From an uncultured Nocardioidaceae bacterium (GTDB taxonomy: Bacteria > Actinomycetota > Actinomycetes > Propionibacteriales > Nocardioidaceae), in assembly GCA_902805845.1 (NCBI GenBank), contig CADCUI010000001.1, forward strand, positions 140,592 through 204,591: DNA of 64,000 nt, written 5' to 3'. The position numbers and the translations under genes are program-made. Position 1 is the first letter of the stretch. Each line of letters opens with the position of its first letter. Positions 4,479 to 60,653 of this stretch are shown piece after piece. The notes under the pieces were generated by a model, which saw nothing but the letters and a program-made list of their open reading frames with translations, searched no databases and was not told the DNA's origin.

Positions 4479-4544
4479 CGCGATCCGCCCTCGATGTCCG
4501 GCCGATCCGCCCGCGATGTCCGGCCGACTCGCCCCTCGTGCAGG
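4479..4544 (+). repeat. Family A 22-nt repeat, 3 tandem units, forward orientation
   Basis: Units are cgcgatccgccctcgatgtccg, gccgatccgcccgcgatgtccg and gccgactcgcccctcgtgcagg. The array ends 27 nt before the VOC start codon. Confidence 0.85.
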
Positions 4545-12020: not shown

Positions 12021-13870
12021 CCGCGGCGACGGCCTTCGTCCCCCTCGATGACCACGACCGGCGTCGTGCACGCCGGGCCCGGGGGCTCCTCGCCGAGATC
12101 AACGACGCCGGGTTCCTGGAGGCGGCCGACGTCCACGTCGCCCAACGCCTCGCTCGGCTGGGTGGCGAGACGTCCCCGGAGGTGCTGCTGGCGGTGGCGG
12201 TGGCCGTGCGGGCGGTCCGGGCGGGGTCGGTGTGCGTCGACCTCCGGTCGGTCGGTGACCTGGCTCCCGGGGTGCGCTGGCCGGACCCCGACTCGTGGGT
12301 CTCGTCGGTGCGGGGAAGCGCCCTGGTCGCCGACGGTGTGCTGTGCCTGGAGGGGACGGACCTCTACCTCAGGCGCTACTGGGAGGAGGAGCGCCAGGTC
12401 GTCGAGGACCTGCGCCGACGTGACGAGAGCGAACCCGTCGCCCTCGACCCCGGCATGGTGGCCGCTGCTCTTGCGGCGTACTTTCCCGACGACGACTCCA
12501 CCGACCAGCGGCTGGCGGCGGCGCTCTCCTGCCGCCGGTGGACCAGCGTCATCACCGGAGGTCCCGGCACGGGCAAGACGACGACGATCGCGCGGCTGCT
12601 GGGGGTGCTGCTGACGGTCGCGGGTGATCAGCCGCTCCGGGTGGCGCTCGCCGCGCCGACCGGCAAGGCGGCGGCCAGGATGGGGCAGGCGCTGCGGGAG
12701 GCCACCGACGTGCCGGGCTTCCCCGGGCGGGACGGGGCGGCCGACGGCGCGGTCGACTGGGCGGGCGACGGGGCGGCCGACGGGGCGGCCGACGCGGCTG
12801 CTGCCCGTCGGCGTGACCAGATCCGCGGCTACCAGGCGTCGACGATCCACCGGCTGCTCGGCTGGCGGCCGGACAGCTCGACCCGGTTCCGCCATGACAG
12901 GTCGAACCCGCTCCCCTACGACGTCGTCGTGGTCGACGAGACCTCGATGGTCTCGCTCACGCTGATGGCCCGGCTGCTGGAGTCGATGCGGCCGCAGGCG
13001 CGACTCGTGCTGGTGGGTGACGCCGATCAGCTTGCGTCCGTGGAGGCGGGCGCGGTGCTCGGTGACGTCGTCCGTGGCTGGAGCTCCACCGGCCCCGTGC
13101 GGCGCTTGGACAGGACCCGTCGGTTCGGCATGAACATCGCCGAGCTTGCCCAGGCGATCAGGGCAGGCGATGACGACGAGGTGGTCAGGGTCCTGCGTGA
13201 GGGCCGCGTCCCCGAGCAGCCGGACGACGGCAGGGTCGCCTGGGTGGAGGCCGACTCGCTCGACCCTCTCCTCGGGGACCAGGCGTTGCGGCTGTGGGAG
13301 GCCGGCCGAGGCGGCGAGGCAGAACGGGCCTGGCAGGTCTTCGAGGGCCACCGGTTGCTCTGTGCGCACCGGGACGGGCCGTACGGCGTCGGGACCTGGA
13401 ACCGGCGCGTCGAGCGGCTGCTGATGGCCGCCGTGGGACAGGACTGGCTCGAGGAGTGGTACCCGGGCCGCCCGTTCATCGTCAACGCGAACGATCGGGG
13501 GCTCGACCTCTGGAACGGCGACACCGGTGTCGCCTGCCTCGCCGCGCCCTCCGCTTCGAGGCCCGGTGCACGGACCGTCGGGGTGATCGGCAAGGGGGGC
13601 GGCGGGACGAGGTCGCTTCCGACGACGCGGCTGTCCGACGTGTCGACCGCTCACGCGATGACCGTGCACCGCAGCCAGGGCAGCCAGTTCGCGGACGTGA
13701 CGGTGCTGCTCCCCGAGCCGGACAGCCGCATCCTCACGCGCGAGCTGTTCTACACCGCGGTGACGCGCGCCCGGGACACGGTGAGAGTGGTCGGCTCGGA
13801 GGAGGCCGTACGTGCCGCGGTGACCCGACGGGCCCAGCGGGCGACCGGCCTGGCTCGCCGGCTGGGCTGA
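12017..13870 (+). CDS. recD: Exodeoxyribonuclease V alpha subunit RecD
   Basis: ATG at 12017 overlaps the recB stop (ATGA). Motifs: ITGGPGTGKTTT, VVVVDETSMV and AMTVHRSQGSQF. Confidence 0.92.
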   Translation: MTAATAFVPLDDHDRRRARRARGLLAEINDAGFLEAADVHVAQRLARLGGETSPEVLLAVAVAVRAVRAGSVCVDLRSVGDLAPGVRWPDPDSWVSSVRGSALVADGVLCLEGTDLYLRRYWEEERQVVEDLRRRDESEPVALDPGMVAAALAAYFPDDDSTDQRLAAALSCRRWTSVITGGPGTGKTTTIARLLGVLLTVAGDQPLRVALAAPTGKAAARMGQALREATDVPGFPGRDGAADGAVDWAGDGAADGAADAAAARRRDQIRGYQASTIHRLLGWRPDSSTRFRHDRSNPLPYDVVVVDETSMVSLTLMARLLESMRPQARLVLVGDADQLASVEAGAVLGDVVRGWSSTGPVRRLDRTRRFGMNIAELAQAIRAGDDDEVVRVLREGRVPEQPDDGRVAWVEADSLDPLLGDQALRLWEAGRGGEAERAWQVFEGHRLLCAHRDGPYGVGTWNRRVERLLMAAVGQDWLEEWYPGRPFIVNANDRGLDLWNGDTGVACLAAPSASRPGARTVGVIGKGGGGTRSLPTTRLSDVSTAHAMTVHRSQGSQFADVTVLLPEPDSRILTRELFYTAVTRARDTVRVVGSEEAVRAAVTRRAQRATGLARRLG

Positions 13871-18404: not shown

Positions 18405-19085
18405 ATGCCGACCGAGCCGCCGCCGTCGCCGTGGCTCTTCCCGGACTTCACCCGGCCCGACCAGGACGCCGCCTGCACCGACGACCTGGTCGGGCGCGGC
18501 GCCGACCTGGCTCCGGGGACCCTCCTGTCGGCCTACCGGTCCGGTCTCTTCCCGATGCCGGACGGTGGCTCCGGCATGAGCTGGTGGTCACCTCGGGACC
18601 GGGGCGTGCTGCCCCTCGACGCGATGTGCGTGTCGCGCTCGCTCGCGAAGTCGTGCCGCCGGATGGAGCTGCGGGTCGACACGTCCTTCGAGGACGTGGT
18701 CGCCGCCTGCGCCGACCCGGCACGCGACGGGGGCTGGATCGACGCCGACATCGCCGCGGCGTACACCCGTCTCCACCGGCTGGGCTGGGCGCACTCGGTG
18801 GAGACGTGGCAGCACGGGGAGCTCGTGGGAGGGCTGTACGGGGTCGCCATCGGCGGGCTGTTCGCCGGCGAGTCGATGTTCCACCGGGTCACCGACGCCT
18901 CGAAGGTGGCGCTGGTGGGGCTGGTCGACCTGCTCTCCGACGAGTACGCCGGGGCCCGGCTGCTCGACGTTCAGTGGCGCACCCCGCACCTCGCCTCGCT
19001 GGGGGTGGTGGAGGTGCCGAGAGCCGGCTACGTCCGAGCCCTCCACGCCGCCCTCCAGGTGCCGTTGCCGACCCCCTGGCGCTGA
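18405..19085 (+). CDS. aat: Leucyl/phenylalanyl-tRNA--protein transferase
   Basis: LLSAYRSGLFPM, WWSPRDRGVLPLD and GGLYGVAIGGLFAGESMFH are typical of Aat. I chose ATG 18405 within the longer 17925 ORF. Confidence 0.85.
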   Translation: MPTEPPPSPWLFPDFTRPDQDAACTDDLVGRGADLAPGTLLSAYRSGLFPMPDGGSGMSWWSPRDRGVLPLDAMCVSRSLAKSCRRMELRVDTSFEDVVAACADPARDGGWIDADIAAAYTRLHRLGWAHSVETWQHGELVGGLYGVAIGGLFAGESMFHRVTDASKVALVGLVDLLSDEYAGARLLDVQWRTPHLASLGVVEVPRAGYVRALHAALQVPLPTPWR

Positions 19086-19156
19086 CCCGCCCCTCAGGTC
19101 TGGCCGAGCCGCCCAACATGTTGGGCGGCTCGGCCAGACATGAGGGGCGGCTCGAC
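19083..19156. repeat. Family A palindromic element (2 forward plus 2 reverse units); probable bidirectional terminator
   Basis: CCGCCCCTCAGGTCTGGCCGAGCCGCCCAAC-AT-GTTGGGCGGCTCGGCCAGACATGAGGGGCGG forms 31-nt arms with one mismatch. It fills the whole gap between the convergent aat and fpg-like stops. Confidence 0.85.
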
Positions 19157-19161
19157 CGGGG

Positions 19162-20034
19162 CTACTTGAGCAGGCGCGAGAGCCGACGGTCGGCGAGCGG
19201 CTTTCCGCCGGTCTGGCACGTCGGGCAGTACTGCAGGGACGAGTCCGCGAACGAGACCTCCCGCACCGTGTCGCCGCAGACCGGGCACGGCAGCCCGGCG
19301 CGGCCGTGCACCGCGAGGTTGCTCTTCTTCTCGCTCTTCAGCTCGGCCGCTGCGAGGCCGGAGGACCGGGCTACCGCGTCGGAGAGCACCCCGCGGATCG
19401 CGTCGTACAAGGTGCGGAGCTCCTCGGGCGACTCCGCCACCGTCACCGCCGGCTTGAACGGCGACATGCGGGCCGCGTGGAGCAGCTCGTCGGAGTAGGC
19501 GTTGCCGATCCCGGCGATGGTCGACTGGGAGCGCAGGACGCCCTTGAGCTGCGCCCGCCCGGCGTCGCGGAGGATCTGCTCGAGGACCCCGATCGTGAAC
19601 TCGTCGGCCAGGGGATCCGGACCCAGCCGTGCCACCCCGGGCACCTCCTGGACGTCGCGCACGACGTAGATCGCCAGCCGCTTCTGCGTGCCGGCCTCGG
19701 TGATGTCCATGCCGGAGTCGTCGTCGAGCACGATCCGGGCGGCTAGCGGTGACTTGTTGCTCGGTCGCGGCGGCGCCGCCGGGACGGTGTCGCGCCACCG
19801 CAGCCAGCCGGCCCGGGAGAGGTGGATGACGAGGTGGAGCCCCGACGCGGTGATGTCGAGGAACTTGCCGTGCCTGGCCACGTCCTCGACCAGGGTGCCG
19901 GTCAGCGCGCTGAGCGGCGGGTCGAAGGTCTTGAGCGCACTGAAGGCGGCGACGTCCACCCGGACGATCGCGCGGTCGGCGAGGCGGCCGCGGAGGTCGT
20001 TGACGAGCGCCTCCACCTCGGGAAGCTCGGGCAT
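19162..20034 (-). CDS. Fpg/Nei family DNA glycosylase / AP lyase
   Basis: The start MPELPEVE carries the catalytic Pro2. The C-terminal zinc finger is CPVCGDTV...CPTCQ. The 20067 start in the ORF track would bury Pro2. Confidence 0.88.
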   Translation of the reverse strand: MPELPEVEALVNDLRGRLADRAIVRVDVAAFSALKTFDPPLSALTGTLVEDVARHGKFLDITASGLHLVIHLSRAGWLRWRDTVPAAPPRPSNKSPLAARIVLDDDSGMDITEAGTQKRLAIYVVRDVQEVPGVARLGPDPLADEFTIGVLEQILRDAGRAQLKGVLRSQSTIAGIGNAYSDELLHAARMSPFKPAVTVAESPEELRTLYDAIRGVLSDAVARSSGLAAAELKSEKKSNLAVHGRAGLPCPVCGDTVREVSFADSSLQYCPTCQTGGKPLADRRLSRLLK

Positions 20035-20133
20035 GGCGTCAGTGTAGGGGCCGGTTTCGGCCGTCACGGCGACACGATTCGCGCCGATAGCGATGTCTAC
20101 GACGAACCCTAGACGGCCCGATACGGTGCGATC

Positions 20134-21366
20134 GTGGACCCGATCAGGAACCCCTACGCGCCGGGCGCCGGGCAGCGCCCGCCCGTGCTGGCCGGCCGCG
20201 ATCGCGAGCTCGCCCAGTTCGACGTGACGCTGGAGCGGGTGGCCGCCGGCCGCCCGGAGCGCAGCATGGTCGTCTCAGGGCTGCGCGGCGTCGGCAAGAC
20301 GGTGCTGCTCAACGCACTGCGCGGCCAGGCCCTCGGGCGGGCCTGGGGCACCGGCAAGATCGAGGCCCGCCCGGACCAGTCGGTGCGGTTGCCGATCGCC
20401 CAGGCCGTCCACGCCGCCGTCCGCGAGGTCGGCCACCGTCACCGGAACCCCGACCGGGTCGACGAGGTGGCCGGCGTGGTCAAGGCCTTCGCGCTCCGCA
20501 CCGAGCTCAAGGACCGCAAGGGCATCCGGTGGAACGGCGCCACCGACGTGGCCGCAGCCAAGGGACGGGCCGACTCCGGCGACCTCGAGCTCGATCTCGT
20601 CGAGCTCTTCAGCGATGTCGGGGAGCTGGCCCGGGACCTCGGCGTCGGAGTGGGCCTCTTCGTGGACGAGATGCAGGACATCGCCTCCTCCGAGCTGGCC
20701 GCCCTCTGTGGCGCCGTGCACGAGCTGAGCCAGCAGGGGGCGCCGGTGGTCGTCGTGGGCGCCGGGCTGCCGCACCTGCCCGTGGCGCTCGCGGCCTCCA
20801 GGTCCTACGCCGAGCGGCTGTTCCGCTACGTCGTCGTCGACCGGCTCCCGCGCGAGATGGCCGAGCGGGCACTGCTGCGCCCCGCCGCCGAGGAGGGTGT
20901 CGGCTACGACCAGGAGGCGCTGGACGAGCTCTACGCCCTCACCGACGGCTACCCCTACTTCGTGCAGGCCTACGGCAAGGTCACCTGGGACCTCGCGGTG
21001 GGCAGCCCGATCCGGCTGACCGACGTGCACGAGGCCGCCCCCGAGGCGGAGGCGGAGCTGGGCACCGGCTTCTTCGGGGCACGCTACGACCGGGCCACCC
21101 CCGCCGAGCGCGACTACATGCGCACCATGGCCGAGCTCGGTGCCGACCACACCGGCGCCGACGGCGCGGCCGGCAGCCCTGATGTACCGGTGACGACGGC
21201 CGCGGTCGCCAAGGCGCTCGGCCGCAAGCCGCAGTCGCTCAGCCCGGCGCGCGACGGACTTCTCAAGAAGGGACTCGTCTACTCCTCCGAGCGGGGGACC
21301 GTGGCGTTCACGGTCCCCCACTTCGGCACGTTCCTGCGCTCCCAGCGGGCGGTCGCCGACCGCTGA
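20134..21366 (+). CDS. AAA-type ATP-binding protein with C-terminal winged-helix-like region
   Basis: Walker A SGLRGVGKTVLLN, Walker B GLFVDEMQD, and a C-terminal segment VTTAAVAKALGRKPQSLSPARDGLLKKGLVY resembling a wHTH. Confidence 0.75.
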   Translation: MDPIRNPYAPGAGQRPPVLAGRDRELAQFDVTLERVAAGRPERSMVVSGLRGVGKTVLLNALRGQALGRAWGTGKIEARPDQSVRLPIAQAVHAAVREVGHRHRNPDRVDEVAGVVKAFALRTELKDRKGIRWNGATDVAAAKGRADSGDLELDLVELFSDVGELARDLGVGVGLFVDEMQDIASSELAALCGAVHELSQQGAPVVVVGAGLPHLPVALAASRSYAERLFRYVVVDRLPREMAERALLRPAAEEGVGYDQEALDELYALTDGYPYFVQAYGKVTWDLAVGSPIRLTDVHEAAPEAEAELGTGFFGARYDRATPAERDYMRTMAELGADHTGADGAAGSPDVPVTTAAVAKALGRKPQSLSPARDGLLKKGLVYSSERGTVAFTVPHFGTFLRSQRAVADR

Positions 21367-28833: not shown

Positions 28834-28890
28834 CCGAGTCGGCGCGAATGCACGCCGGCTCGTGCATTCACGCCGACTGGGCCTGCTTTT
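28834..28890 (+). terminator. Hairpin formed by the first forward/reverse Family B pair, followed by a CTTTT run
   Basis: An ~18-bp stem (agtcggcgcgaatgcacg / cgtgcattcacgccgact, one mismatch), loop ccggct, then gcctgcttttc. On the other strand the same palindrome follows the arcA stop. Confidence 0.45.
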
Positions 28891-28942
28891 CGCGTGCATT
28901 CGCGCCGACTCGGCGTGCGGGGCGTGCGTTCGCGCCGACTCG
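28834..28942. repeat. Family B repeat cluster (1 forward plus 3 reverse units)
   Basis: ccgagtcggcgcgaatgcacg (forward), then cgtgcattcacgccgactgg, gcgtgcattcgcgccgactcg and cgtgcgttcgcgccgactcg (reverse). It lies between the convergent thioesterase and arcA stops. Confidence 0.85.
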
Positions 28943-30163
28943 TCAGACGGGGTCGCGGGAGATCGGGCACGACATGCACCGGGGCCCGCCGCGCCCGGAT
29001 CCGAGCTCGGACCCGGCGATCGCGATGACCTCGATGCCGGCGGCCTCGAGCCGGGCGTTGGTCTCGACGTTCCGCTCGTAGGCCACCGCGACCCGCGGCG
29101 CGATCGCCAGGGTGTTGTTGCCGTCGTCCCACTGCTCGCGCTCGGCGGTGACGGGGTCGAGGCCGGTGTCGATCTGGTGCAGCGTGTCGATGCGCATGGC
29201 CTTGGCGGCGGCCACGAGGAAGGGCTCCTCCGGCGCCATGTCGAGCACCATGCCGCCGTCGTCCCCGCGGTCGGCGACGGTCACGGCGTAGGCCGACAGG
29301 GAGTCGGCGAGGTTGGGATACATCACGATCTTGTCGACGTCGACCATCGTGCAGACGGTGTCCAGGTGCATGGTGGCCCGCTGCTGGGCGATGGGCACCG
29401 CCAGCACGGTCTCGGCCAGGTCCGCGGCGAACATCTGCCGCGCCAGCCGCTCCGCACCGGCCGGTGTGGTGCGCTCGCCGACACCGACGGCGACGACACC
29501 CGGCGCCAGGAGGAGGACGTCGCCGCCCTCGACGTACTCCTGGTGCCAGCCGTGGATCCGGGGTACGCCGGCGAAGCGCGGATGCAGGGAGTAGATGAGC
29601 TCGGTCAGCTGGCTCTCCCGGTCCCGCGCCTCCATCTTCAACGACGTGATGGCGACGTGGTCGCGGACCCACACGCTCGAGTCACGCGTGAACAGCAGGT
29701 TGGGCAGCGGGTCGACGAGGAAGTCGTCGGAGGGCAGCAGCGTGGTGACCAGGCCGTGGCCGCCGCGGACCTCGTCGTTGCGGACGCCCTCGCAGAGCAC
29801 CCGGGTGAGCTCTGCCGGGCCGAGCTCGGTGAGCGCCGTGGTGAGGTAGTCGCGCAGGGTGTCGCCCAGCCCGAGGTTCTGCATCACCGCGGTGATCGCG
29901 CGCGACCGGGCCTCCTCCGACTCCAGCGTCTCGGCCAGCAGCTCCACCAGGTAGAGCACCTCGACCCCACGCGCCCGCAGCGCCTCGGCGAACGCGTCGT
30001 GCTCCTCCTGTGCCCGGCTCACCCACGGGATGCCGTCGTAGAGCAGCTTGTCGTTGTTGCGGGGCGTGAGCCGTTTCAGCTCCGGCCCGGGCCGGTGAAG
30101 CATCACCGTGCGCAGCCGTCCGACCTCGCTGTCGACCCCTGGGGGCGCTCCCGCCGCGTCCAT
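28943..30163 (-). CDS. arcA: Arginine deiminase
   Basis: [17 protein letters not shown] at the N-terminus, a catalytic Cys near the C-terminus ([10 protein letters not shown]), and 406 aa. Confidence 0.92.
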
Positions 30164-32252: not shown

Positions 32253-33539
32253 TCAGGCGGTCTGGCGCGGTCGAGGGGCTGTGCGTCCGCCCTGGCCAGG
32301 CAGCCCCTGGCCAGGCAGCCCCTGGCCAGGCAGCCCCTGGCCAGGCAGCCCCTGGCCAGGCAGCCCCTGGCCTGCGCCGAGGGCGATGCCCCGTTCGCAC
32401 AGCCACGTCGAGATCCGCTCGTACGTCGGTTCGGGCAGGGCGACCACCGGCTCGATGCAGTCGGCGAACCGGCCGCACGCCTCGGACCACACCGCCAGAT
32501 TTCGCGGGCCGTAGTCCTCGCCCGCTGCGAAGTGGTCGGCAGCCGCCGACGAGATCCGCACCGTCACGCACTCGGGGCGGTCGAGCCGCCGCTGATGACC
32601 GAGGAACGCCTTGCCGCTCTTGATGCCGAGCACGATCTTGAGCCGGATCACCAAGTCGAGCAGCCAGAACATCGGGGTCATCGAGTGGTGCCGGATCGCT
32701 GAGGAGCCGCTCGCGACGTACCGCCGCAGCAGGGACTCGTCGAAGGCCAGCCCCAGCCGGTTGGCCTCGCCCACCATCCACAGCAGCGCGGTGTCGGAGA
32801 GCCCCGCCTCGGCGTAGCCGCCGCCGACGTCGGAGTGCACGCCTTCGAACCACACCTGGCGGACCCGCTCGTCCTCGTTGTCGCCGCCCTTCACGGCCTC
32901 CCAGAGGCAGGGCTCGAACTTCATCCGCTGCTCGTCGGCGGCCAGCGCCTGCCGGGCACAGAGCACCGCGTCGCTGAGCTGCACGTCGTGGAACTGGTGA
33001 GCACGGCGGACGGCGCCGGGCACGCCGAGCGCGCCGACGGTGTCGAACACGCCGAGGAACTGGATAGGTGTCGCGTCGTGGCAGTAGTCGTGGCGGAACT
33101 CTGCGGCGCTGGAGCCGAACATGCCACCGGCGGGATCGCGCTGCCTGTAGCGCGCCACCGCCTCGGGCAGCCGCTCGTCTACGAGGGCCCGCCTGGTCAG
33201 CAGTCCGACCTTTCCGATCATCCCCACCATCGACCGGGCGGTGTAGGCGCCGCGGCTGAAGCCGAACACGAAGATCTCGTCGCCCGGCTCGTAGTTGAGG
33301 GCCAGGAAGCGGTAGCCGGCCAGCACGTTGGTGAAGAGGCCCAGCCCGAACGCGCCGCCGAGGAACCGGTCCACGCGGTAGCTGCCGCCCACCCCGCTGA
33401 GGTAGAGCACCAGCTGCTGCACGCCGTCCGTGGCGGCGAGGTCGGTCTGCACGGTCCGAGCGATCTTCTCGATGTTGGTGACACACCGGCTGTCGGGGCG
33501 GTTCCACGTCCCGTCGCAGCAGATCACCAGCCGCTTCAT
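32253..33539 (-). CDS. DUF2235 (Tle1-like alpha/beta hydrolase) protein with C-terminal (GQGLP)5 repeat
   Basis: MKRLVICCDGTWN and FGFSRGAYTARS (GxSxG). The start at 33539 is preceded by GGGAGGAG. The 33605 start in the ORF track is an extension. Confidence 0.8.
   Translation of the reverse strand: MKRLVICCDGTWNRPDSRCVTNIEKIARTVQTDLAATDGVQQLVLYLSGVGGSYRVDRFLGGAFGLGLFTNVLAGYRFLALNYEPGDEIFVFGFSRGAYTARSMVGMIGKVGLLTRRALVDERLPEAVARYRQRDPAGGMFGSSAAEFRHDYCHDATPIQFLGVFDTVGALGVPGAVRRAHQFHDVQLSDAVLCARQALAADEQRMKFEPCLWEAVKGGDNEDERVRQVWFEGVHSDVGGGYAEAGLSDTALLWMVGEANRLGLAFDESLLRRYVASGSSAIRHHSMTPMFWLLDLVIRLKIVLGIKSGKAFLGHQRRLDRPECVTVRISSAAADHFAAGEDYGPRNLAVWSEACGRFADCIEPVVALPEPTYERISTWLCERGIALGAGQGLPGQGLPGQGLPGQGLPGQGLPGQGGRTAPRPRQTA
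32290..32370. repeat. 15-nt tandem repeat ccaggcagcccctgg, x5.4, in frame in the DUF2235 gene
   Basis: Five perfect units from 32296 to 32370 plus a partial leading unit. It encodes GQGLP x5 near the C-terminus. The unit ends (ccagg/cctgg) are self-complementary. Confidence 0.95.
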
Positions 33540-33649
33540 AGCTGGATGCTCCTCCCTTGGCCTGCCACCTGTCACGGTGCCTGCAACGACACGCAGCATG
33601 AGCATTTCGACTCAGGCGGCGGGACCATCGGCGGTGGGACGATCACGCC

Positions 33650-36895: not shown

Positions 36896-36981
36896 CGAGT
36901 CGGCGCTTGTGCACGCCGGAACCCCGTCGAGTCGGCGCTTGTGCACGCCGGAACCCCGTCGAGTCGGCGCTTGTGCACGCC
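36896..36981 (+). repeat. Family B repeat, 2.7 tandem units (32-nt period)
   Basis: cgagtcggcgcttgtgcacgccggaaccccgt occurs twice, then cgagtcggcgcttgtgcacgcc. It lies between the pirin stop and the start of the small membrane gene. Confidence 0.9.
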
Positions 36982-36994
36982 GACAGCGCCGAGG

Positions 36995-41299: not shown

Positions 41300-41387
41300 G
41301 CCGACCCGCCCCTCATGTCTGGCCGACCCGCCCCTCATGTCTGGCCGACCCGCCCGTCATGTCCGGTCGACCCGCCTTTCGTGCAGA
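41300..41387 (+). repeat. Family A 22-nt repeat, 4 tandem units, forward
   Basis: gccgacccgcccctcatgtctg x2, then gccgacccgcccgtcatgtccg and gtcgacccgcctttcgtgcaga. The array ends 10 nt before the CoA-transferase ATG. Confidence 0.9.
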
Positions 41388-42555: not shown

Positions 42556-42556
42556 C

Positions 42557-42643
42557 CAGCATCCCGGGCGGGTCGGGCAGACATGAGGGGCGGGTCGAGC
42601 AGACATGAGGGGCGGGTCGGGCAGACATGAAGGGCGGGTCGGC
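42557..42643 (-). repeat. Family A 22-nt repeat, 4 tandem units, reverse
   Basis: cagcatcccgggcgggtcggg, cagacatgaggggcgggtcgag, cagacatgaggggcgggtcggg and cagacatgaagggcgggtcggc. The array starts 2 nt after the CoA-transferase stop. Confidence 0.9.
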
Positions 42644-42767
42644 ACCGTGGCCAGAGGGGCTGAGGAGGGCCCGGCCATGGCCACCGTGACAGCCGCGGTG
42701 CCAGAGTTGGATACTCACCGGTAACCGCGCCTGTCGGGTCGCGGACGCCGCACCGAAAGTGGGGAGC

Positions 42768-43985
42768 ATGACTGACGCGCCGCAGGCGATCGTGTACGAC
42801 GCAATCCGAACCCCGCGGGGCAAGGGCAAGAAGGACGGGTCGCTCCACGAGGTGAAGCCGATCGACCTGGTCGTCACGCTCCTCGACGAGATCCGCAAGC
42901 GCAATGACGGCTTCGACCCCGCGCGGGTCGACGACGTGGTGCTCGGGATCGTCACCCCGATCGGGGACCAGGGTGGCGACCTCGCCAGGACCGCCGCCCT
43001 CGCGGCTGGCTATCCCGAGACCACCGCCGGCGTGCAGCTCAACCGGTTCTGCGCCTCCGGCCTCGAGGCGGTCAACCAGGCCGCGGCCCGGGTCCGCTCC
43101 GGATGGGAGGACCTCGTCCTCGCCGGCGGGGTCGAGTCGATGAGCCGGGTGCCGATGGGCTCCGACGGTGGCGCCTGGGCCTGCGACCCGGCGACGGCGT
43201 TCCAGACCGCCTTCGTGCCGCAGGGCATCGGTGCCGACCTCGTCGCCACCCTCGAGGGATTCAGCCGCAGGGACGTCGACGCCTACGCCGCCGAGTCACA
43301 GGCACGTGCGGCCAAGGCGCAGGCCAACGGGTACTTCGACGGTTCCGTCGTCCCGGTCCGAGACATGAACGGGCTCACGATCCTCGAGCGCGACGAGCTC
43401 ATCCGGCCCGGCACCACCGTCGAGACCCTCGCGGCCCTCAAGCCCAGCTTCGCCTTCCACGGCGACCTCGGGTTCGACGCCGTCGCGCTCGAGAAGTACC
43501 ACTGGGTCGAGCGCATCAACCACGTCCACCACGCCGGCAACTCCTCCGGCATCGTCGACGGCGCGGCGATCGTCGTCGTCGGCACCGAGCAGGTCGGTGA
43601 GGAGCTGGGGCTGCGCCCGCGTGCCCGCATCCTGTCGACAGCCGTCTCCGGCTCCGAGCCGACGATCATGCTCACCGGCCCCGCGCCGGCGGCTCGCAAG
43701 GCGCTCGCGAAGGCAGGTCTCACCATTGGTGACATCGACCTCTGGGAGATGAACGAGGCCTTCGCCGCCGTGGTCCTCCGCTTCATGCGCGACCTGGAGC
43801 TCGACTCCGAGGTCGTCAACGTCAACGGCGGTGCGATCGCCATGGGCCACCCGCTCGGCGCCACCGGCGCGATGCTCATCGGCACCCTGGTCGACGAGCT
43901 CGAGCGGCGCGACCTGCGCCGCGGGCTGGCCACTCTCTGCGTCGGTGGCGGGATGGGCATCGCCACCGTCGTCGAGCGCATCTGA
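42768..43985 (+). CDS. fadA: Acetyl-CoA C-acyltransferase (thiolase)
   Basis: [12 protein letters not shown] (active-site Cys), [17 protein letters not shown] and CVGGGMG. Confidence 0.9.
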
Positions 43986-49243: not shown

Positions 49244-49603
49244 TCACTCGACGACGACGTCATCCCCGCGGCGAAGGGCGCGACGGACCCGCAGCTTGAG
49301 GACCTTGCCATAGCTGAGCACGAGCTGGGTGTAGCCGGGCGTGGGGCCGTGGTACCCGAGGAACCCGCGCGGCCCCTCGACCATCGCGCCGGTCTCGACG
49401 TCGTACTTGCTCTGGTGCCACGGGCACACCAGGCACCCGTCGGCGTCGACCGTGCCCTGGGAGAGGTCGCCGAGCTGGTGCCGGCACCGAGGTGAGACCG
49501 CGAACAGCTCCCCGTCCCGGCGGTGACCGACCGCCCACTGCCCGACGCGGCGTACCGCCCCTGGTGGCAGGTCACGGGCAGGGATGCGGTTCTCGTCGGT
49601 CAT
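49244..49603 (-). CDS. Rieske [2Fe-2S] domain protein
   Basis: CRHQ...CPWHQ (CxH / CxxH ligands). ATG 49603 is preceded by AGGAGG. The 351-aa ORF in the track is an extension through the repeat arrays. Confidence 0.8.
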   Translation of the reverse strand: MTDENRIPARDLPPGAVRRVGQWAVGHRRDGELFAVSPRCRHQLGDLSQGTVDADGCLVCPWHQSKYDVETGAMVEGPRGFLGYHGPTPGYTQLVLSYGKVLKLRVRRALRRGDDVVVE

Positions 49604-49677
49604 CGGTCCTCCTGGTGGGTGCGCGTGGCGCGGGTCGATGGGCGGGGCAGTGCTCCCCAGATACCCCATCTCACCCA

Positions 49678-49787
49678 GCCGACCCGCCCTCGATGTCTGG
49701 TCGACCCGCCCACGATGTCTGGCCGAGCCGCCCACGATGTCTGGCCGAGCCGCCCACGATGTCTGGCCGAGCCGCCCACGATGTCGG
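49678..49787 (+). repeat. Family A 22-nt repeat, 5 tandem units, forward (CGATG subtype)
   Basis: gccgacccgccctcgatgtctg, gtcgacccgcccacgatgtctg, gccgagccgcccacgatgtctg x2 and gccgagccgcccacgatgtcgg. Confidence 0.92.
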
Positions 49788-49864
49788 TTGACGGCTTGCG
49801 CCGCGGCGGCGTTGGCTGAGGGAAGGGCGCGGCGCCAGGTCGCGCCGACATCAGGAGGTAAACC

Positions 49865-50245
49865 GTGAGCAACCGCGTCGTGCACTTCGAGATCCCGTAC
49901 GACGACCCGGACCGCGCGTCGAAGTTCTACGCCGACACGTTCGGCTGGGAGCTCACGTCGATGCCCGAGATGGGCTACGTGCTGGCGTCGACCGGTCCCA
50001 GCGGCGAGCAGGGACCGACCGAGCCCGGCTTCATCAACGGGGGGATGCTCCAGCGGGGGAGTCACTGGACGGCACCCAACGTCGTCATCGACGTCGCCAA
50101 CATCGAGGACGCGCTCACGGCAGTGGGGGAGCACGGCGGCAGCACCGTGGTCGAGCGGGAGCCCGTCGGGGACATGGGTTTCAGCGCCTACTTCAAGGAC
50201 AGCGAGGGCAACCTGATCGGCCTCTGGGAGACCGCCAGCGGCTGA
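49865..50245 (+). CDS. VOC (glyoxalase) family protein
   Basis: VVHFEIPYDDPDRASKFYADTFGW and FKDSEGNLIGLWE are typical of single-domain VOC proteins. A GGAGG RBS lies before the GTG. Confidence 0.8.
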   Translation: MSNRVVHFEIPYDDPDRASKFYADTFGWELTSMPEMGYVLASTGPSGEQGPTEPGFINGGMLQRGSHWTAPNVVIDVANIEDALTAVGEHGGSTVVEREPVGDMGFSAYFKDSEGNLIGLWETASG

Positions 50246-50248
50246 TTG

Positions 50249-50314
50249 CCGGTACGCCGGGCGGGTCGGCCAGACATCGTGGGCGGGTCGGCCGGACATC
50301 GCGGGCGGGTCGGC
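50249..50314 (-). repeat. Family A 22-nt repeat, 3 tandem units, reverse (CGATG subtype)
   Basis: ccggtacgccgggcgggtcggc, cagacatcgtgggcgggtcggc and cggacatcgcgggcgggtcggc. It lies between the VOC stop and the convergent kinase stop. Confidence 0.88.
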
Positions 50315-50325
50315 GGGACGGGCAC

Positions 50326-51960
50326 CTAGTCCGAGACGGTCCGCTGCCGCGGGAAGGGCACGACCCAGGTGAGGGCGGTACCCGCACCGGGGGCGGTCTC
50401 GACCTCGAAGGTGCCGCCGTGCTGGGCCGCTCGCTCGGCCAGGTTCGCCAGACCACTGCGACGGGTGCTGCGGATCCCCACGCCGTCGTCGCGCACGGTG
50501 AGCCGCACACCGCCGCGGTCGACGGTGGCGACCACCTCGACGTGGCTGGCCGAGGCGTGCCGCACGACGTTCGACAGCCCTTCGCGCACGCAGGCCGCGA
50601 GGTCCGCGGCCAGCGCTCCGGCGACCTCCCCCGAGGGCGCCTCGAGCGACACCAGCGGCTCGAAGCCCAGCAACGGCGCGGCCTCGCTGACGATCTCCGA
50701 GACCAGCTTCTCCAACGTCACGTGGTGCTCGTCGGCGGTGCGCAGGCTCATGATCGTGGTGCGGATCTGGCTGATCGTCTCGTCCAGCGAGCTCACCGCC
50801 GTCTCGAGCCGTGCCTGGACGTCGCCGTCGACCCGGCCGGCGAGCTGCTGCAGGGACATGCCGGTCCCGTAGAGCCGCTGGATGACGTGGTCGTGCAGGT
50901 CGCGGGCCAACCGGTTGCGGTCCTCCAGCCGCTGCACCTTGTCGGCCACCTCACGCGCCGCCGCCAGCTCCAGCACGATCGCGGCGTGCCGGGCGAACGT
51001 CCCGGCGACCTCCACGTCGGCCTCGGTGAACCGCGGGGCCTCCGACAGCCGGCCGAGGAAGAGTGCGCCCAGCACGCTGTCCTGACCCTGGAGCGGGATG
51101 AGCATCCCGGGGCCGAGATCGGCGCCGCTCATCTCGTGGAAGCCGCCCCGCTCCACGTCAGGAAGGTGGGCCACCACCTGGCCCCGGCGGCTGCGCAGGA
51201 CGCGGCGTACCCACGCGCTGTCCTCGAGCGCGAACTCGCGACCGAGCAGCGCCTCCTCGCTGTGCAGCCCCCGCGCGTAGCGGATCCTGACCCGGTCGTG
51301 CTCGCCCAGCAGCATCACCGCGACCAGGTGGGCCTCCGACAGCTCGCGGGCCCGGTCCGAGACCAGACGCAGCGGCTCGTCGAGGTCCGGCGCGAGGAGG
51401 TCTCGGGTCATGCTCGTCGCCGCGCTCATCCACCGGCGCGCCTTGAGCGCGTCGCGCAGCAGCTGCACCCCGGCGACGGCCTCACCCAGCCCGGCACCCA
51501 GCTCGCCGGCCAGGGCCTCGTCCTCCTCGGTCCAGGCCGGACCGGGTCGTCGTTGCCCGACGTAGAGGATGCCGACGGTCCGGCCGTTGCCGCACAGCCG
51601 CGTGCCGAGGAAAGTGTGCAGCTCGGGGTGGCCCGGCGGCAGCCTGAGGGCGGACAGGGCCGCGGGGCCGCTGAGGCGGAGCGTCCCGCCGGCTTCCTCC
51701 ACCTCCTGCAGCAGCCGCTCGCTGAAGGGGTCGACGGGCCCTCGGCCGACCGCGACCGGCGGCATCCCGGCGAAGCAGGGCGGGCCGAGGGTGCCGTCGT
51801 CCTGGAGGAGGGCGGCTCCGGCGACGTCGGCGCCGAAGACGGACCGGCCGAGCTCTGCCACCCGCGCCACCCGTGCTGCGTGGGGGCGGTCGGCCCTCAT
51901 GAGCTCGGGCAGGGCAGCAAGCAGCCTGCTCACCTTCGAGTCTCCGCTCGAGAACCCCAC
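50326..51960 (-). CDS. GAF-domain sensor histidine kinase (HisKA_3 / NarL-partner type)
   Basis: Two GAF-like N-terminal regions, the H-box ERNRLARDLHDHVIQRLYG, and a C-terminal HATPase (VRDDGVGI). No response regulator gene is adjacent. Confidence 0.85.
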   Translation of the reverse strand: MGFSSGDSKVSRLLAALPELMRADRPHAARVARVAELGRSVFGADVAGAALLQDDGTLGPPCFAGMPPVAVGRGPVDPFSERLLQEVEEAGGTLRLSGPAALSALRLPPGHPELHTFLGTRLCGNGRTVGILYVGQRRPGPAWTEEDEALAGELGAGLGEAVAGVQLLRDALKARRWMSAATSMTRDLLAPDLDEPLRLVSDRARELSEAHLVAVMLLGEHDRVRIRYARGLHSEEALLGREFALEDSAWVRRVLRSRRGQVVAHLPDVERGGFHEMSGADLGPGMLIPLQGQDSVLGALFLGRLSEAPRFTEADVEVAGTFARHAAIVLELAAAREVADKVQRLEDRNRLARDLHDHVIQRLYGTGMSLQQLAGRVDGDVQARLETAVSSLDETISQIRTTIMSLRTADEHHVTLEKLVSEIVSEAAPLLGFEPLVSLEAPSGEVAGALAADLAACVREGLSNVVRHASASHVEVVATVDRGGVRLTVRDDGVGIRSTRRSGLANLAERAAQHGGTFEVETAPGAGTALTWVVPFPRQRTVSD

Positions 51961-59197: not shown

Positions 59198-60549
59198 CCG
59201 GGCCGCCGGAGGCCTTCCAGGCGGCCGCGGGCTCCTCGGACAGGCTGGTGTGGCTGGACGGTCACGTGGCCGAGCACCCGTGGTCCGGCCGGGGCTCGCT
59301 GCTCGGTGTCCTCGGGGCCGACGACGTGTCGCTCACCTTCGACGCGGGTCGGCGACAGGTGCTCCGCCACCGTGGAGAGAACTCCCAGCCGGTCGGGGAC
59401 GACATCTTCGACGTCCTGGAGGCCGAGGTGGCTCGGGACGCCGGCGACCCGTCGGTGGTGTGGGTGGGCTACCTCGGTTACGCCTGCCGGACCGACCTGC
59501 CCGGCAGACCGGCCGACCCGGGTTCCGGCGTACCCGACGCGGTGTGGCTGCGGCTGGTCGACCCCCTCACCCTGCCGACCCGCCCTTCATGTCTGGCCGA
59601 GCCGCCCACGATGCTGGGCGATCGCAGCATCGTGGGCGGCTCGAACGAACATGAAGGGCGGGTCGACGAGGGGTACGCCGCGGCGTACGCCGAGGTGCAA
59701 CGGCAGCTGCGGCTCGGGAACTCCTACGAGGTCAACCTCACCTACCGGGAGAGGCTCGCCTCCGACGTCGACCCGGTGACGGCGTACCTTCGCTTGCGCG
59801 AGATCAACCCGGCGCCCTACTCCGGCTACCTGCGGCACCGCGGTGTCCACCTGCTCAGCTCGAGCCCCGAGCGGTTCGCGGCCGTGGACGGGGAGCGGGT
59901 GCTCGAGGCCCGGCCGATCAAGGGCACGACGCGGCGTGGCGCGACCCCGGCGGAGGACGCCGAGGAGGCGCGACGGCTGGCCGCCGACCCGCGGTTCCGC
60001 GCCGAGAACCTCATGGTCGTCGACCTGCTGCGCAATGACCTGTCGATGGTGTGCGACCCCGGCACCGTCACGGTGCCGGCGCTGATGGCGGTGGAGTCCT
60101 ACCCCTCGGTGCACCAGCTCGTCTCGACGATCCGCGGCCGGCTGCACGACGGCGTCTCGACGGTGCGGGCGGTGCGGGCGCTCTTCCCGGCCGGGTCGAT
60201 GACCGGGGCGCCGAAACGCCGGACGATGGAGATCATCGACGCCGTCGAGGCCACCCCGAGGGGCGCGTACGCCGGGGCCTTCGGCTGGCTCTCCGGTGAC
60301 GGCCGGGCCGACCTCAGCGTCGTCATCCGGACCCTCGTCGCGACGCGGAGCGGCGTGTCGACCAGCATCCTGGGCGGCTCGACCGGACATGAGGGGCGGG
60401 TCGGCGGGTGGACCTACGAGCTCGGCACCGGCGGGGGGATCACCGTGCGCTCCACCCTGCACGAGGAGTACGACGAGACGCGCTGGAAGGCCGCCCGGCT
60501 CCGGGCGGCCCTCCACGTGGATCCTGGGTCGGACCTCTCGACGCCCTGA
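59194..60549 (+). CDS. pabB: Aminodeoxychorismate synthase component I-like chorismate-binding enzyme carrying two in-frame Family A repeat segments
   Basis: GTGA overlap with the pabA stop. Motifs: SYEVNLT, SSSPERF, RPIKGT, AENLMVVDLLRND, FPAGSMTGAPK, PRGAYAGAFGW and GGGIT. Repeat-derived peptides lie at about residues 127-158 and 390-404. Confidence 0.85.
   Translation: MTGPPEAFQAAAGSSDRLVWLDGHVAEHPWSGRGSLLGVLGADDVSLTFDAGRRQVLRHRGENSQPVGDDIFDVLEAEVARDAGDPSVVWVGYLGYACRTDLPGRPADPGSGVPDAVWLRLVDPLTLPTRPSCLAEPPTMLGDRSIVGGSNEHEGRVDEGYAAAYAEVQRQLRLGNSYEVNLTYRERLASDVDPVTAYLRLREINPAPYSGYLRHRGVHLLSSSPERFAAVDGERVLEARPIKGTTRRGATPAEDAEEARRLAADPRFRAENLMVVDLLRNDLSMVCDPGTVTVPALMAVESYPSVHQLVSTIRGRLHDGVSTVRAVRALFPAGSMTGAPKRRTMEIIDAVEATPRGAYAGAFGWLSGDGRADLSVVIRTLVATRSGVSTSILGGSTGHEGRVGGWTYELGTGGGITVRSTLHEEYDETRWKAARLRAALHVDPGSDLSTP
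59574..59667. repeat. Family A palindromic element (2 forward plus 2 reverse units around GCGATCG) inside the pabB CDS
   Basis: gccgacccgcccttcatgtctg and gccgagccgcccacgatgctgg, then gcgatcg, then cagcatcgtgggcggctcgaac and gaacatgaagggcgggtcgac. The ~40-nt arms have about 4 mismatches. Confidence 0.9.
60363..60405 (-). repeat. Family A half-element (2 reverse units) inside the pabB CDS
   Basis: cagcatcctgggcggctcgac and cggacatgaggggcgggtcggc. This is the same inner-unit variant (CAGCATCC) as at 42557. Confidence 0.85.
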
Positions 60550-60550
60550 C

Positions 60551-60653
60551 GGCGCAGGGCGGCCCAGCGAGGGCGGCCCGGCGCAGGGCGGCCCAGCGAG
60601 GGCGGGCCAGCGAGGCGGGCCAGCGAGGCAGTCCAGCGAGGCAGCCCAGCGAT
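60551..60653. repeat. Short tandem repeats: a 29-nt duplication followed by about 4 copies of a 13-nt unit (CCAGCGAGGCRGB)
   Basis: CCAGCGA recurs at 60564, 60593, 60607, 60620, 60633 and 60646. It fills the convergent gap between pabB and the protease gene. Confidence 0.85.

Follow-up and report, generated by a model that had tools for sequence, protein, structure and literature searches.

The window analysed here, a 64-kb stretch of DNA from an uncultured Nocardioidaceae bacterium, contains a gene of 126 aa (49865..50245, + strand; stop codon at 50243–50245) for a VOC protein of the glyoxalase/bleomycin-resistance-like kind (domain call Glyoxalase/Ble-like_N; PF22677 at 3.3e-13 and PF00903 at 1.4e-9). 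It is flanked by a divergent Rieske [2Fe-2S] gene (49244..49603, −) and a convergent GAF-HisKA_3 sensor histidine kinase gene (50326..51960, −), both recognized by domain matches. The first-pass annotation had placed inverted arrays of 22-bp units on both sides of the VOC gene, and the sequence together with TRF confirmed this arrangement. The upstream array (49678..49787, +) consists of the five forward units claimed, joined head to tail and carrying the variable triplets TCG, ACG, ACG, ACG, and ACG in order; TRF reported it as a 22-bp array at 49678–49785 with 4.9 copies and 95% matches. As had also been noted, it lies in the region shared by the divergent VOC and Rieske genes, and 74 nt separate its head from the start of the Rieske gene. 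The downstream array (50249..50314, −; TRF 50258–50319, reverse orientation, 2.8 copies) begins 3–4 nt past the VOC stop codon. Its three reverse units resolve, on the minus strand, into two full units, GCCGACCCGCCCGCGATGTCCG (50293–50314, triplet GCG) and GCCGACCCGCCCACGATGTCTG (50271–50292, triplet ACG), and a degenerate tail unit, GCCGACCCGCCCGGCGTACCGG (50249–50270), beside the VOC stop. The head of this array is 11 nt past the kinase stop, and the 80-nt convergent spacer between the VOC and kinase genes is filled by the array.

The tail of the upstream array directly adjoins a TTGACG-N18-TTGGCT motif (49788..49817, +). The form TTGAC(G/A)-N17/18-TTG(G/T)CTG was found upstream of the VOC homologues in the related loci L085, L089, L090, and L091, and homologues with 75–79% identity, which occur in unrelated contexts and lack arrays, have the same TTGAC…TTGGCT motif. 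This portable motif may represent the VOC gene's own promoter or operator; a scan for sigma-70 consensus promoters and intrinsic terminators revealed nothing. The presumed 5' leader contains a small GC hairpin, GGCGCG…CGCGCC (49826..49846, +), which L085 shares; a Shine-Dalgarno sequence (GGAGG) and a GTG start codon come after the hairpin.

The units at the VOC locus belong to a repeat family, designated here Family A, that is represented in the 64 kb by about 30 units at eight sites, six of which are intergenic. The module is 22 bp long; its core is invariant and bipartite, with (G/C)YCGA-S-CCGCCC and ATGTCYG on either side of a free 3-nt triplet. Allowing up to three mismatches, the VOC-locus unit occurs 12 times in the window (0.02 expected), and the core CCGCCCNNNATGTC occurs 23 times (3.5 expected). 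The arrays are polar, with a "head" (GCCGACCCGCCC…) at one end and a degenerate "tail" at the other; the flanks of the heads are merely C-rich. One array (4481..4544, +), of the xCG subtype and with a TCGTGCAGG tail, stands alone upstream of a Glyoxalase_6 gene. A second bracket surrounds a CoA-transferase gene: its left arm (41300..41387, +; supported by TRF and sequence) comprises three units and a TCGTGCAGA tail between the stop of an ABC ATPase gene and the CoA-transferase start, and its right arm (42556..42643, −), with three units and a GATGCTGG tail, lies directly 3' of the CoA-transferase stop.

Two further pairs form tail-to-tail palindromes. The first (19082..19156; −74.4 kcal/mol, z −9.4) separates the convergent genes for a Leu/Phe-tRNA-protein transferase and an Fpg/Nei protein, and its first unit provides a TGA stop codon. 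The second (59574..59665; −90.3 kcal/mol, z −13.2) is located in frame in an ORF for a PabB-like (chorismate-binding) protein, which also includes two reverse units in frame (60355..60405, −) within a 19-aa insertion, VSTSILGGSTGHEGRVGGW, missing in nine of nine aligned homologues. The arms of both hairpins mirror each other exactly, even in the variable triplets. Tails face each other in both gene brackets and in both perfect hairpins of the window. For the single arrays, predicted folding was no stronger than that of dinucleotide shuffles (z −0.8 to +2.2), and the 22-bp unit has no internal complementarity. Several other candidate roles were rejected: the potential of GGGCGGG in the G-rich strand to form a G-quadruplex is not shared by the related families and so cannot be general; a role of the C-rich strand as a Rho rut site is not supported by any consistent orientation of the arrays relative to the flanking genes; and the likeness to the LexA box, RecA-NDp/PafBC, DnaA box, AdpA, and HAIR motifs amounts to partial matches that are inconsistent across the units.

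The arrays were also found in a second assembly, that of the 99.6%-identical (99.57%) strain L001, and in independent metagenomes (L083–L087 and L094–L095), which indicates that they are not an assembly artefact. The metagenomic locus L085, from a sister lineage, has the order Rieske gene, five forward units, VOC gene, five reverse units, and kinase gene, and therefore represents an orthologous bracket with an orthologous five-unit upstream array. Between the window and L085, identity amounts to 88% in the VOC coding sequence, 75.6% at third codon positions, and 71–73% in the non-repeat spacers. Set against this neutral divergence of about 25%, the 17 core positions of the five units differ by a single change in 85 sites (P <= 1.3e-9), whereas the variable triplets differ at 8 of 15 positions; the core of Family A is constrained and the triplet is free. 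The number of units, meanwhile, changes between strains that are more than 99% identical, and it changes by whole units. The window and L001 differ by exactly one 22-bp indel, the downstream array of L001 having one additional unit. L085 and L086, with flanks about 99.5% identical, differ in their arrays by one unit (five downstream units in L085, four in L086) and about eight substitutions. Hypermutation of the arrays was rejected, because the two substitutions in about 470 nt between the window and L001 correspond to the background rate.

The first-pass annotation had also claimed that the two arms of a locus agree in subtype while the loci differ, and that the arms consequently share a history, having been born together or homogenised. 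The agreement within a locus was found: the VOC arms have xCG before ATGTC and the CoA-transferase arms xTC. The subtypes are not exclusive to a locus, however, as xCG also occurs at 4481–4544 and the hairpin at 59574–59665 contains both types, and in essence they differ by one or two variable nucleotides. When individual units were compared in a distance matrix, the partner arm was the nearest neighbour for three of the four bracket arms. The observed pairing of arms was the best of 45 among the six non-hairpin arrays (p = 0.022), and permutation among all ten arrays gave p = 0.016; the arms of a locus cluster in this small sample of 6–10 arrays from 64 kb. Both arms of the VOC bracket predate the split from the L085 lineage, and a common origin of the two is plausible from these similarities. 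Ongoing homogenisation is not supported: the upstream arm of the window is closer to the upstream arm of L085 (distance 1.80) than to its own downstream partner (2.27). In addition, the arms of L085 have unlike triplets (GCG upstream, GTG downstream), and unit gains and losses affect one arm only.

The same data bear on the possibility that two adjacent spacers each acquired an array in a separate event, and that inverted orientation and subtype match are coincidental. The main triplet classes number just two, and each is present at several loci, so that the naive chance of a subtype match at two loci is about 1 in 4, and the separate evolution of the arms would also fit. Recurrent gain is suggested by L094, in which a diverged array follows the stop of the kinase gene (the contig ends there); no array is present at that site in L097, although it is the closer relative. 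The CoA-transferase locus shows, moreover, that arrays are able to arrive around a resident gene. Orientation speaks against coincidence: every inverted pair that we found is tail-to-tail, which applies to both brackets and both hairpins of the window and to a bracket in Nocardioides taihuensis L003, and for the three single-gene brackets random orientation would give (1/4)^3 ≈ 0.016. The arms are mutual nearest neighbours in the best of the 45 pairings, and the complementarity of the CoA-transferase arms reaches about 25 nt past the units (102 nt, 81%). We therefore regard separate arrival as unlikely.

This complementarity could alternatively act at the RNA level, with the C-rich 5' arm pairing with the G-rich 3' arm on one mRNA in a long stem around the ORF, which would be an RNase III processing site or stabilize the transcript. 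The VOC arms are 89–92% complementary over about 60 nt, and those of the CoA-transferase locus are 81% complementary over 102 nt and 92% over 61 nt; there, the neighbouring genes are all co-oriented with short spacers, and co-transcription is plausible. At the VOC locus, however, the upstream neighbour is divergent and the 5' arm is probably not part of the VOC mRNA; the promoter-like motif, which is conserved and portable and separates the gene from the upstream array, also argues against such pairing. The triplets of L085 reveal no compensatory pattern between arms across lineages, and Rfam 15 covariance models at the gathering score gave no matches in the whole window. An RNA bracket is accordingly, in our estimation, very improbable.

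Comparison with more distant relatives showed what occupies these sites elsewhere. Downstream of kinase relatives with 74, 63, and 51% identity lie a conserved gene of 76 aa and one for a desaturase; a VOC gene and arrays are both absent. The question whether arrays occur at this site without the VOC gene was answered in the negative for L092, L093, and L097, in which no VOC gene stands beside the kinase gene and arrays are missing too. At the second locus, the CoA-transferase gene is found 3' of the ABC ATPase gene in array-free relatives as well, which makes this its ancestral position, and at the place of the array 42556–42643 the relatives have about 6 kb of other genes. Insertion of this gene into an earlier palindrome is consequently excluded; the arms must have arrived around a resident gene. 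In N. taihuensis L003, a related repeat family brackets an AbiEi/DUF559 gene with the same architecture.

Since inverted repeats enclose single genes, the arrays might be recombination sites that flip or mobilize the gene between them. The accessory nature of the VOC and AbiEi/DUF559 genes, which occur in varied contexts, and the location of arrays at synteny breaks would agree with an invertible or excisable cassette. Yet the orientation of the VOC gene does not vary among the window, L001, L085, and L086, its homologues elsewhere are free of arrays, and inversion would be inconsequential with the putative promoter enclosed; no recombinase gene is located nearby. We find this explanation barely credible. 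Another proposal, which we also hold to be quite improbable, is that the centre of the palindrome is a preferred site of gene capture or rearrangement recognized by a putative dedicated sequence-specific protein; on that reading, the gene brackets would be traces left in Nocardioidaceae by gene acquisition of an integron-like or hotspot-like kind. Several observations are consistent with gene capture: the tails always point toward the enclosed gene, the tail sequences are idiosyncratic and the fastest changing, the VOC and AbiEi/DUF559 genes are accessory and lie at synteny breaks, and the core is strongly constrained. The ancestral position of the CoA-transferase gene is inconsistent with it.

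A two-unit pattern requiring ATGTC had no matches in the species-representative genomes (GTDB), an absence that holds for the ATGTC form only, because the pattern is too strict for related repeats with variant 3' halves such as those of L094 (…CTCATTCGAG) and N. taihuensis (…AGTTGTTGTCG). The same pattern gave two real matches and one chance match in the JGI metagenomes. Neither a translated-array query against 5.8 billion proteins nor a search for the Family A repeat in 72,556 plasmids and 50,697 phages returned any match. Other loci of Actinomycetota carry arrays with a 21–22-bp period and different unit sequences. No RAYT or transposase domain was detected in the 42 window ORFs covered by Pfam, which lie outside about 36.4–39.7 kb and three stretches of 1.3–2.5 kb.

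The constraint on the core raises the question of whether the units are operators. According to this explanation, they would bind a putative regulator, which, sitting on the inverted arrays to both sides, could synapse and thereby loop the gene out or shield it from neighbouring genes, and the copy number would tune the strength of the effect, with the hairpins and in-gene copies as by-products. The bipartite core kept around a free 3-nt spacer across the neutral divergence described above and the period of 22 bp, close to two helical turns, would fit such binding; the upstream array, whose head is close to the Rieske start, stops exactly where the TTGACG motif of the VOC gene begins, its five units are kept in both lineages, and VOC-family genes stand downstream of two of the three forward arrays. 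Operators would nevertheless not be expected in frame within a biosynthetic gene or as perfect palindromes in the spacer of a convergent gene pair. The bracketed genes (encoding a CoA-transferase, a VOC protein, and an AbiEi/DUF559 protein) are functionally unrelated, near-identical strains differ in unit number and in the downstream tails, VOC homologues elsewhere have the promoter motif without arrays, and no candidate regulator was found. Operator arrays thus appear to us rather unlikely.

Among known systems, Family A most invites comparison with the REP/BIME/REPIN elements described in E. coli, Pseudomonas, and Stenotrophomonas (Di Nocera et al. 2013, PMC3733652; Bertels & Rainey 2011, PMC3116915). 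REPs form HH, TT, and HT dimers, may have DNA inserted between the dimer partners, supply stop codons, and include intragenic copies of 20–30 aa (PMC3733652). Like them, Family A is short and GC-rich and, within the 64 kb, dense in intergenic regions, with a lineage-specific sequence; it occurs as singles, clusters, and inverted dimers that fold as one long hairpin, has DNA between dimer partners, and provides stop codons and in-frame genic copies. The inverted hairpin doublet is represented by 19082–19156 (−74 kcal/mol) and 59574–59665 (−90 kcal/mol). On the other hand, the unit is non-palindromic instead of an imperfect palindrome of 20–40 nt folding as a stem-loop, the profile of 38 Family A units contains no GTAG or CGTC end tag, by which most REP families are defined, head-to-tail arrays, rare in REP families, are dominant, the arrays are polar with a degenerate tail, and the host is an actinobacterium. 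To our knowledge, there is no RAYT associated with Family A. Rickettsia palindromic elements (RPEs) are repeats that, like REPs, lie in frame in conserved enzyme genes and add 20–30 residues (PMC3733652). Palindromic Family A copies likewise occur in frame within an enzyme gene, but RPEs are single palindromes of 100–150 bp in an alphaproteobacterial endosymbiont, whereas Family A comprises 22-bp modules that are mostly intergenic.

Head-to-tail arrays in actinobacterial gene spacers, also inside operon-like rows, resemble the MIRU-VNTR loci, and the L001 indel and the five versus four units of L085 and L086 represent strain copy-number polymorphism of the same kind. MIRU-VNTR of Mycobacterium tuberculosis have units of 46–101 bp, are oriented with the operon, and contain small ORFs that overlap the stop and start codons of the neighbouring genes and couple these genes; Family A has 22-bp units in both orientations. 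We know of no report of MIRU units as inverted pairs, hairpins, or gene brackets. Plasmid iterons, for example those of R6K, are 22-bp direct repeats, of which inverted copies also exist. The tandem period of about 22 bp and the conserved core, which suggests protein binding on one helix face, are reminiscent of them; in contrast to iterons, Family A is chromosomal and dispersed over many loci, with no rep gene or origin nearby, and the flanks of the array are Rieske, VOC, and kinase genes instead of an initiator gene.

Weighing these comparisons, we give about even weight to the interpretation that Family A is of the REP/BIME/REPIN kind and that the VOC bracket is an old tail-to-tail pair whose arms have since evolved separately with the core kept. 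Family A would then be a lineage-restricted, non-coding interspersed repeat of unusual construction, in which 22-bp modules are strung head to tail into polar arrays and the basic higher-order composite is a pair of arrays joined tail to tail. Tails without DNA between them give a perfect long hairpin; in the VOC and CoA-transferase brackets, one gene lies between the tails. The VOC bracket may be one such old pair, with arms probably of common origin; it lies at a break in synteny, with an accessory VOC cassette and its own putative promoter beside the kinase gene. Each arm has since evolved separately by gain and loss of whole units, presumably through slippage or unequal exchange, while selection or continual re-copying has kept the unit core intact.

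An intact core in every unit points to a sequence-specific recogniser, most likely a protein, which we infer from the conservation pattern. Core conservation could instead reflect selection for a cellular function and not maintenance of the element. The arrays may affect transcription of the VOC and Rieske genes or termination between the VOC and kinase genes, and the function of Family A and the mechanism by which it may have spread are here likewise deduced from comparison of the units and their positions.

In conclusion, Family A is a previously undescribed repeat family of REP-like kind in a soil Nocardioides-type bacterium; full-text literature searches retrieved no description of the family or its architecture. 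Interspersed repeats of REP/REPIN type have received much study in Proteobacteria and hardly any in high-GC Actinobacteria, and the text of the 2013 REP survey does not mention Actinobacteria (Di Nocera et al., PMC3733652). Family A is unusual in being modular and polar, in forming tail-to-tail pairs that either fold as hairpins or enclose one gene, and in being tolerated in frame within an essential-type enzyme gene. From a practical standpoint, the arrays break metagenome assemblies, give rise to spurious ORF calls, and offer VNTR-like strain markers. A core that remains constant at about 25% neutral change implies an active recognising or maintaining factor, and the arrays with a 21–22-bp period elsewhere in Actinomycetota suggest that the design may be general.

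The first-pass annotation had described a VOC-family gene framed by inverted arrays of a 22-bp repeat (Family A), and this arrangement was confirmed by TRF, by direct reading and by a mismatch count. In the window, which has a G+C content of 72.7%, TRF placed a 22-bp array at 49678–49785 (4.9 copies, 95% matches) and an array of opposite orientation at 50258–50319, and the Family A unit occurs 12 times with up to three mismatches, against 0.02 expected. Read directly, the left arm (49678–49787, +) consists of five forward units, with GCCGACCCGCCCTCGATGTCTG first, GTCGACCCGCCCACGATGTCTG second, GCCGAGCCGCCCACGATGTCTG occurring twice and GCCGAGCCGCCCACGATGTCGG last. The right arm (50249–50314, −) contains GCCGACCCGCCCGCGATGTCCG (50293–50314), GCCGACCCGCCCACGATGTCTG (50271–50292) and the degenerate unit GCCGACCCGCCCGGCGTACCGG (50249–50270), whose end is 3 nt away from the stop codon of VOC (50243–50245). 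According to Pfam, the enclosed gene (49865–50245, +) encodes a Glyoxalase/Ble-like_N protein of 126 aa, with a divergent Rieske protein gene (49244–49603, −) on one side and a convergent GAF-HisKA_3 kinase gene (50326–51960, −) on the other. Between the array and the Rieske start, the stretch 49652–49677 (minus strand GTGAGATGGGGTATCTGGG) is conserved at 393–411 of the sister-lineage locus L085, and the remaining spacer is not; its minus strand contains GGGTAT, which we take to resemble a −10 of the sigma-B/sigma-F type, and a putative matching −35 would fall within the first unit of the array.

The same arrays were found in a metagenome contig of a near-identical strain (ENA ERZ1300029 k137_65099; L001, L096), 99.57–99.7% identical to the window. 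For the FadB-like protein, the nearest species-representative genomes (Nocardioides, Marmoricola and other Propionibacteriales) reach only 64–69% identity. Pfam covered 42 ORFs, those of the window outside ~36.4–39.7 kb and outside three stretches of 1.3–2.5 kb in which no ORF passed the codon-bias filter. No transposase domain was found among them; they encode ordinary chromosomal functions such as RecC, a RecB-like helicase-nuclease, arginine deiminase and ABC transporters.

Family A occupies eight sites in the window: a single array upstream of a Glyoxalase_6 gene (4481–4544, +), the arms of the VOC bracket and of a second bracket around a CoA-transferase gene (41300–41387, +; 42556–42643, −), a tail-to-tail palindrome between convergent genes (19082–19156), and a second such palindrome (59574–59665) and two units (60355–60405, −) inside a PabB-like ORF. 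In a profile of 38 units pooled from all sources, G4, A5, C7–C12, G18 and G22 are invariant, A16, T17, T19 and C20 are nearly so, positions 1, 2, 6 and 21 are two-state, and positions 13–15 form an essentially free triplet. The arrays are polar: the head is an abrupt GCCGACCCGCCC start behind a C-rich flank, and the tail is a degenerate unit, either of a recurring type (…GATGCTGG and …TCGTGCAGR, three times each) or unique. Single arrays fold no better than shuffled sequences (z −0.8 to +2.2), whereas both tail-to-tail composites form near-perfect hairpins, one at −74 kcal/mol (z −9.4) and one at −90 kcal/mol (z −13.2), whose arms mirror each other, triplets included. Since the tails also point inward to the enclosed gene in both brackets, every inverted pair seen is tail-to-tail.

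The PabB-like ORF (~59212–60549) is a homologue of aminodeoxychorismate/anthranilate synthase component I (Chorismate_bind 3.7e-78; PDB matches). Its palindrome, a 92-nt hairpin, reads in frame as LPTRPSCLAEPPTMLGDRSIVGGSNEHEGRVD and falls in the variable linker that precedes the catalytic domain. The two units at 60355–60405 are part of a 19-residue insertion, VSTSILGGSTGHEGRVGGW, which sits just ahead of the conserved GTGGGI motif and is present in none of nine aligned homologues. Both elements are identical in the second strain (L096). These in-frame copies show that Family A reaches new sites, coding sequence included, as do REPs and Rickettsia palindromic elements (PMC3733652). The closest PabB-like homologue (P0121, 61% identity) has a tandem peptide repeat of its own, PTPSRRGCASAP in two copies, in the linker that holds the palindrome in the window (alignment A1, columns 190–225); repeats may land in this linker recurrently. 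Directly behind the PabB-like stop codon lies a 13/29-bp tandem array (60550–60652; AGGGCGGCCCAGCG, ~7 copies).

The nearest VOC homologues (86–88% identity) lie on short metagenome contigs. L085 is an orthologous locus, with Rieske, five forward units, VOC, five reverse units and kinase, and the VOC bracket thus predates the split between the window and L085. The related locus L086 (identical to L087) encodes a VOC protein identical to that of L085 in flanks ~99.5% identical, and its downstream array has four units, triplets unlike those of L085 and a wholly different tail; between the window and L001, the downstream array differs by exactly one 22-bp unit. Window and L085 are 88% identical in the coding sequence, 75.6% at third codon positions and 71–73% in non-repeat spacers; the 17 core positions of the five upstream units changed at one of 85 sites (P <= 1.3e-9 at the neutral rate), compared with eight of 15 variable triplet sites. 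These comparisons indicate that turnover of the arrays proceeds in whole units and that the core is actively maintained. Such strong constraint implies a putative sequence-specific recognising factor, which could serve either the element (mobilisation, maintenance) or the cell (regulation, insulation, termination). The constraint would also fit operator arrays acting through looping; we consider this rather unlikely, because the intragenic copies do not fit it. That the bracket is an invertible cassette is extremely improbable, as no orientation variants were seen.

VOC homologues at 75–79% identity lie in unrelated contexts without arrays, and all of them keep TTGAC(G/A)-N17/18-TTG(G/T)CTG ~60–70 nt before the start codon (L089, L090 and L091); the motif is also present in L085 (529–560) and in the window (49788–49817, directly behind the array tail). 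In the window and L085 the motif is followed by a conserved GC hairpin. We infer that it is a putative portable promoter/operator of VOC; it was not called in a consensus sigma-70 scan, and its second hexamer is at odds with the TANNNT −10 consensus, so it may be read by an alternative sigma factor or act as an operator. If it is the VOC promoter, transcription of VOC starts past the upstream array and does not include it, which makes 5'/3' RNA pairing of the arms very doubtful at this locus.

Arrays that occur at this site regardless of the VOC gene would have spoken against the first-pass reading and were not seen: downstream of the kinase homologues L097 (74%), L093 (63%) and L092 (51%) neither VOC nor arrays were found. 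The next genes there are a conserved convergent 76-aa gene and one for a fatty-acid desaturase, both absent from the window, which places VOC and its arrays at a synteny break. In L094/L095 (kinase 62%, enoyl-CoA hydratase 69%) a diverged variant, GTCGACCCGCCCCTCATTCGAG, begins 18 nt past the kinase stop, oriented like the array of the window, and the contig stops there. In several array-free Nocardioides relatives (L009, L017, L018) the CoA-transferase orthologue likewise stands behind the ABC permease and ATPase genes, and this gene is therefore resident, the arrays having come around it. The right arm of its bracket, which sits where relatives have ~6 kb more genes before thiolase, is again at a rearrangement point. 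The two arms are complementary for ~25 nt past the units (102 nt at 81%). Window and L001 differ at 42598 and, in a cluster, at 42706–42771: the spacer that separates the right arm from the start of the thiolase gene has six substitutions and one 2-nt deletion within ~65 nt, a stretch that includes a 15-codon ORF behind a Shine-Dalgarno-like sequence.

The first-pass annotation had proposed that the arms of a locus share a history, born together or homogenised, on the grounds that the unit subtype agrees within a locus (CGATGTC, or xCG, at VOC; TCATGTC, or xTC, at CoA-transferase) and differs between loci. The subtype is not a locus-private mark, since xCG also occurs at 4481 and both types are mixed in the 59574 hairpin. 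When the arrays are compared by best-match unit distance, each bracket arm has its partner as nearest or near-nearest array, and the observed pairing is the best of 45 possible for the six non-hairpin arrays (p=0.022; p=0.016 for all ten arrays), statistics that rest on few arrays (n=6–10). A common origin of the arms is thus plausible and modestly supported. Ongoing homogenisation is not supported: the distance of the window's upstream arm from that of L085 is 1.80, against a larger 2.27 from its downstream partner, triplets differ between the two arms of L085, and unit indels hit one arm only. Independent insertion of the arms would agree with the existence of only two main subtypes; we regard it as improbable, given that all single-gene brackets of Family A type, including that of Nocardioides taihuensis, are tail-to-tail (3/3; random-orientation chance ~0.016). 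The basic composite would be a tail-to-tail pair of arrays, and the VOC bracket would be one such pair with the gene between the tails.

On a base of 64 kb of one genome and short metagenome contigs, Family A is best interpreted as an interspersed repeat family that resembles REP/BIME elements and is built in an unusual, modular and polar way. REPs form HH, TT and HT dimers, may hold DNA between dimer partners, supply stop codons and occur within genes (PMC3733652); likewise, the first Family A unit at 19082 provides a TGA stop. Filing the family as REP was rejected, because its unit is non-palindromic and lacks the GTAG/CGTC tag, head-to-tail arrays are the dominant form and no RAYT is known for it.

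Other repeats were noted in the window. A second family (core CGAGTCGGCGC…GTGCACGC, 30–32-bp period; 28836–28952, 36896–36982) seems to be built likewise, from a conserved core and a variable remainder; it forms a hairpin and reverse units between convergent genes (28836–28945) and 2.7 perfect forward units (36896–36982), and L006 has a related 32-bp array at 12198–12281, between FadB and an ABC gene. A 15-bp unit, CCCTGGCCAGGCAGC, which contains the palindrome CCTGGCCAGG, is repeated perfectly five and a half times at 32290–32372; the copies overlap the 3' end of a Tle1-like phospholipase ORF (32253–33611, −) and may therefore be coding.

A two-unit ATGTC pattern gave no match in 185,579 species-representative genomes and two real matches in JGI metagenomes (L083, L084); the pattern is too narrow, as related families exist. 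An HMM of the unit revealed no further members in the other ~75 actinobacterial loci, and other Actinomycetota carry arrays of 21–22-bp period with unrelated units. One such 22-bp unit, CGTTGAGTTGGGCCYGCCTKCC, occurs in a MAG of another lineage (L077; 6788–6852, 9801–9960, 12937–13110; copies 98–100% identical). It makes up forward arrays, a hairpin composite immediately ahead of FadB, and a run of eight units upstream of an MDMPI gene; other relatives have no such gene between FadB and the ABC-transporter gene. N. taihuensis CGMCC 4.7318 (L003, 19225–20385) has a related 22-bp family, GYCGAACCGCC-AGTYGTTGYYG, with the 5' half-core in common, in a tail-to-tail bracket around one gene: forward units 4 nt past a histidine-phosphatase stop, an AbiEi_4/DUF559 gene (19355–20332) for an REase-like protein, and reverse units, followed by an SDR-VOC gene pair. 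In L088 and L090, VOC lies directly behind the histidine phosphatase gene. N. taihuensis is a cultured organism in which gene brackets could be studied.
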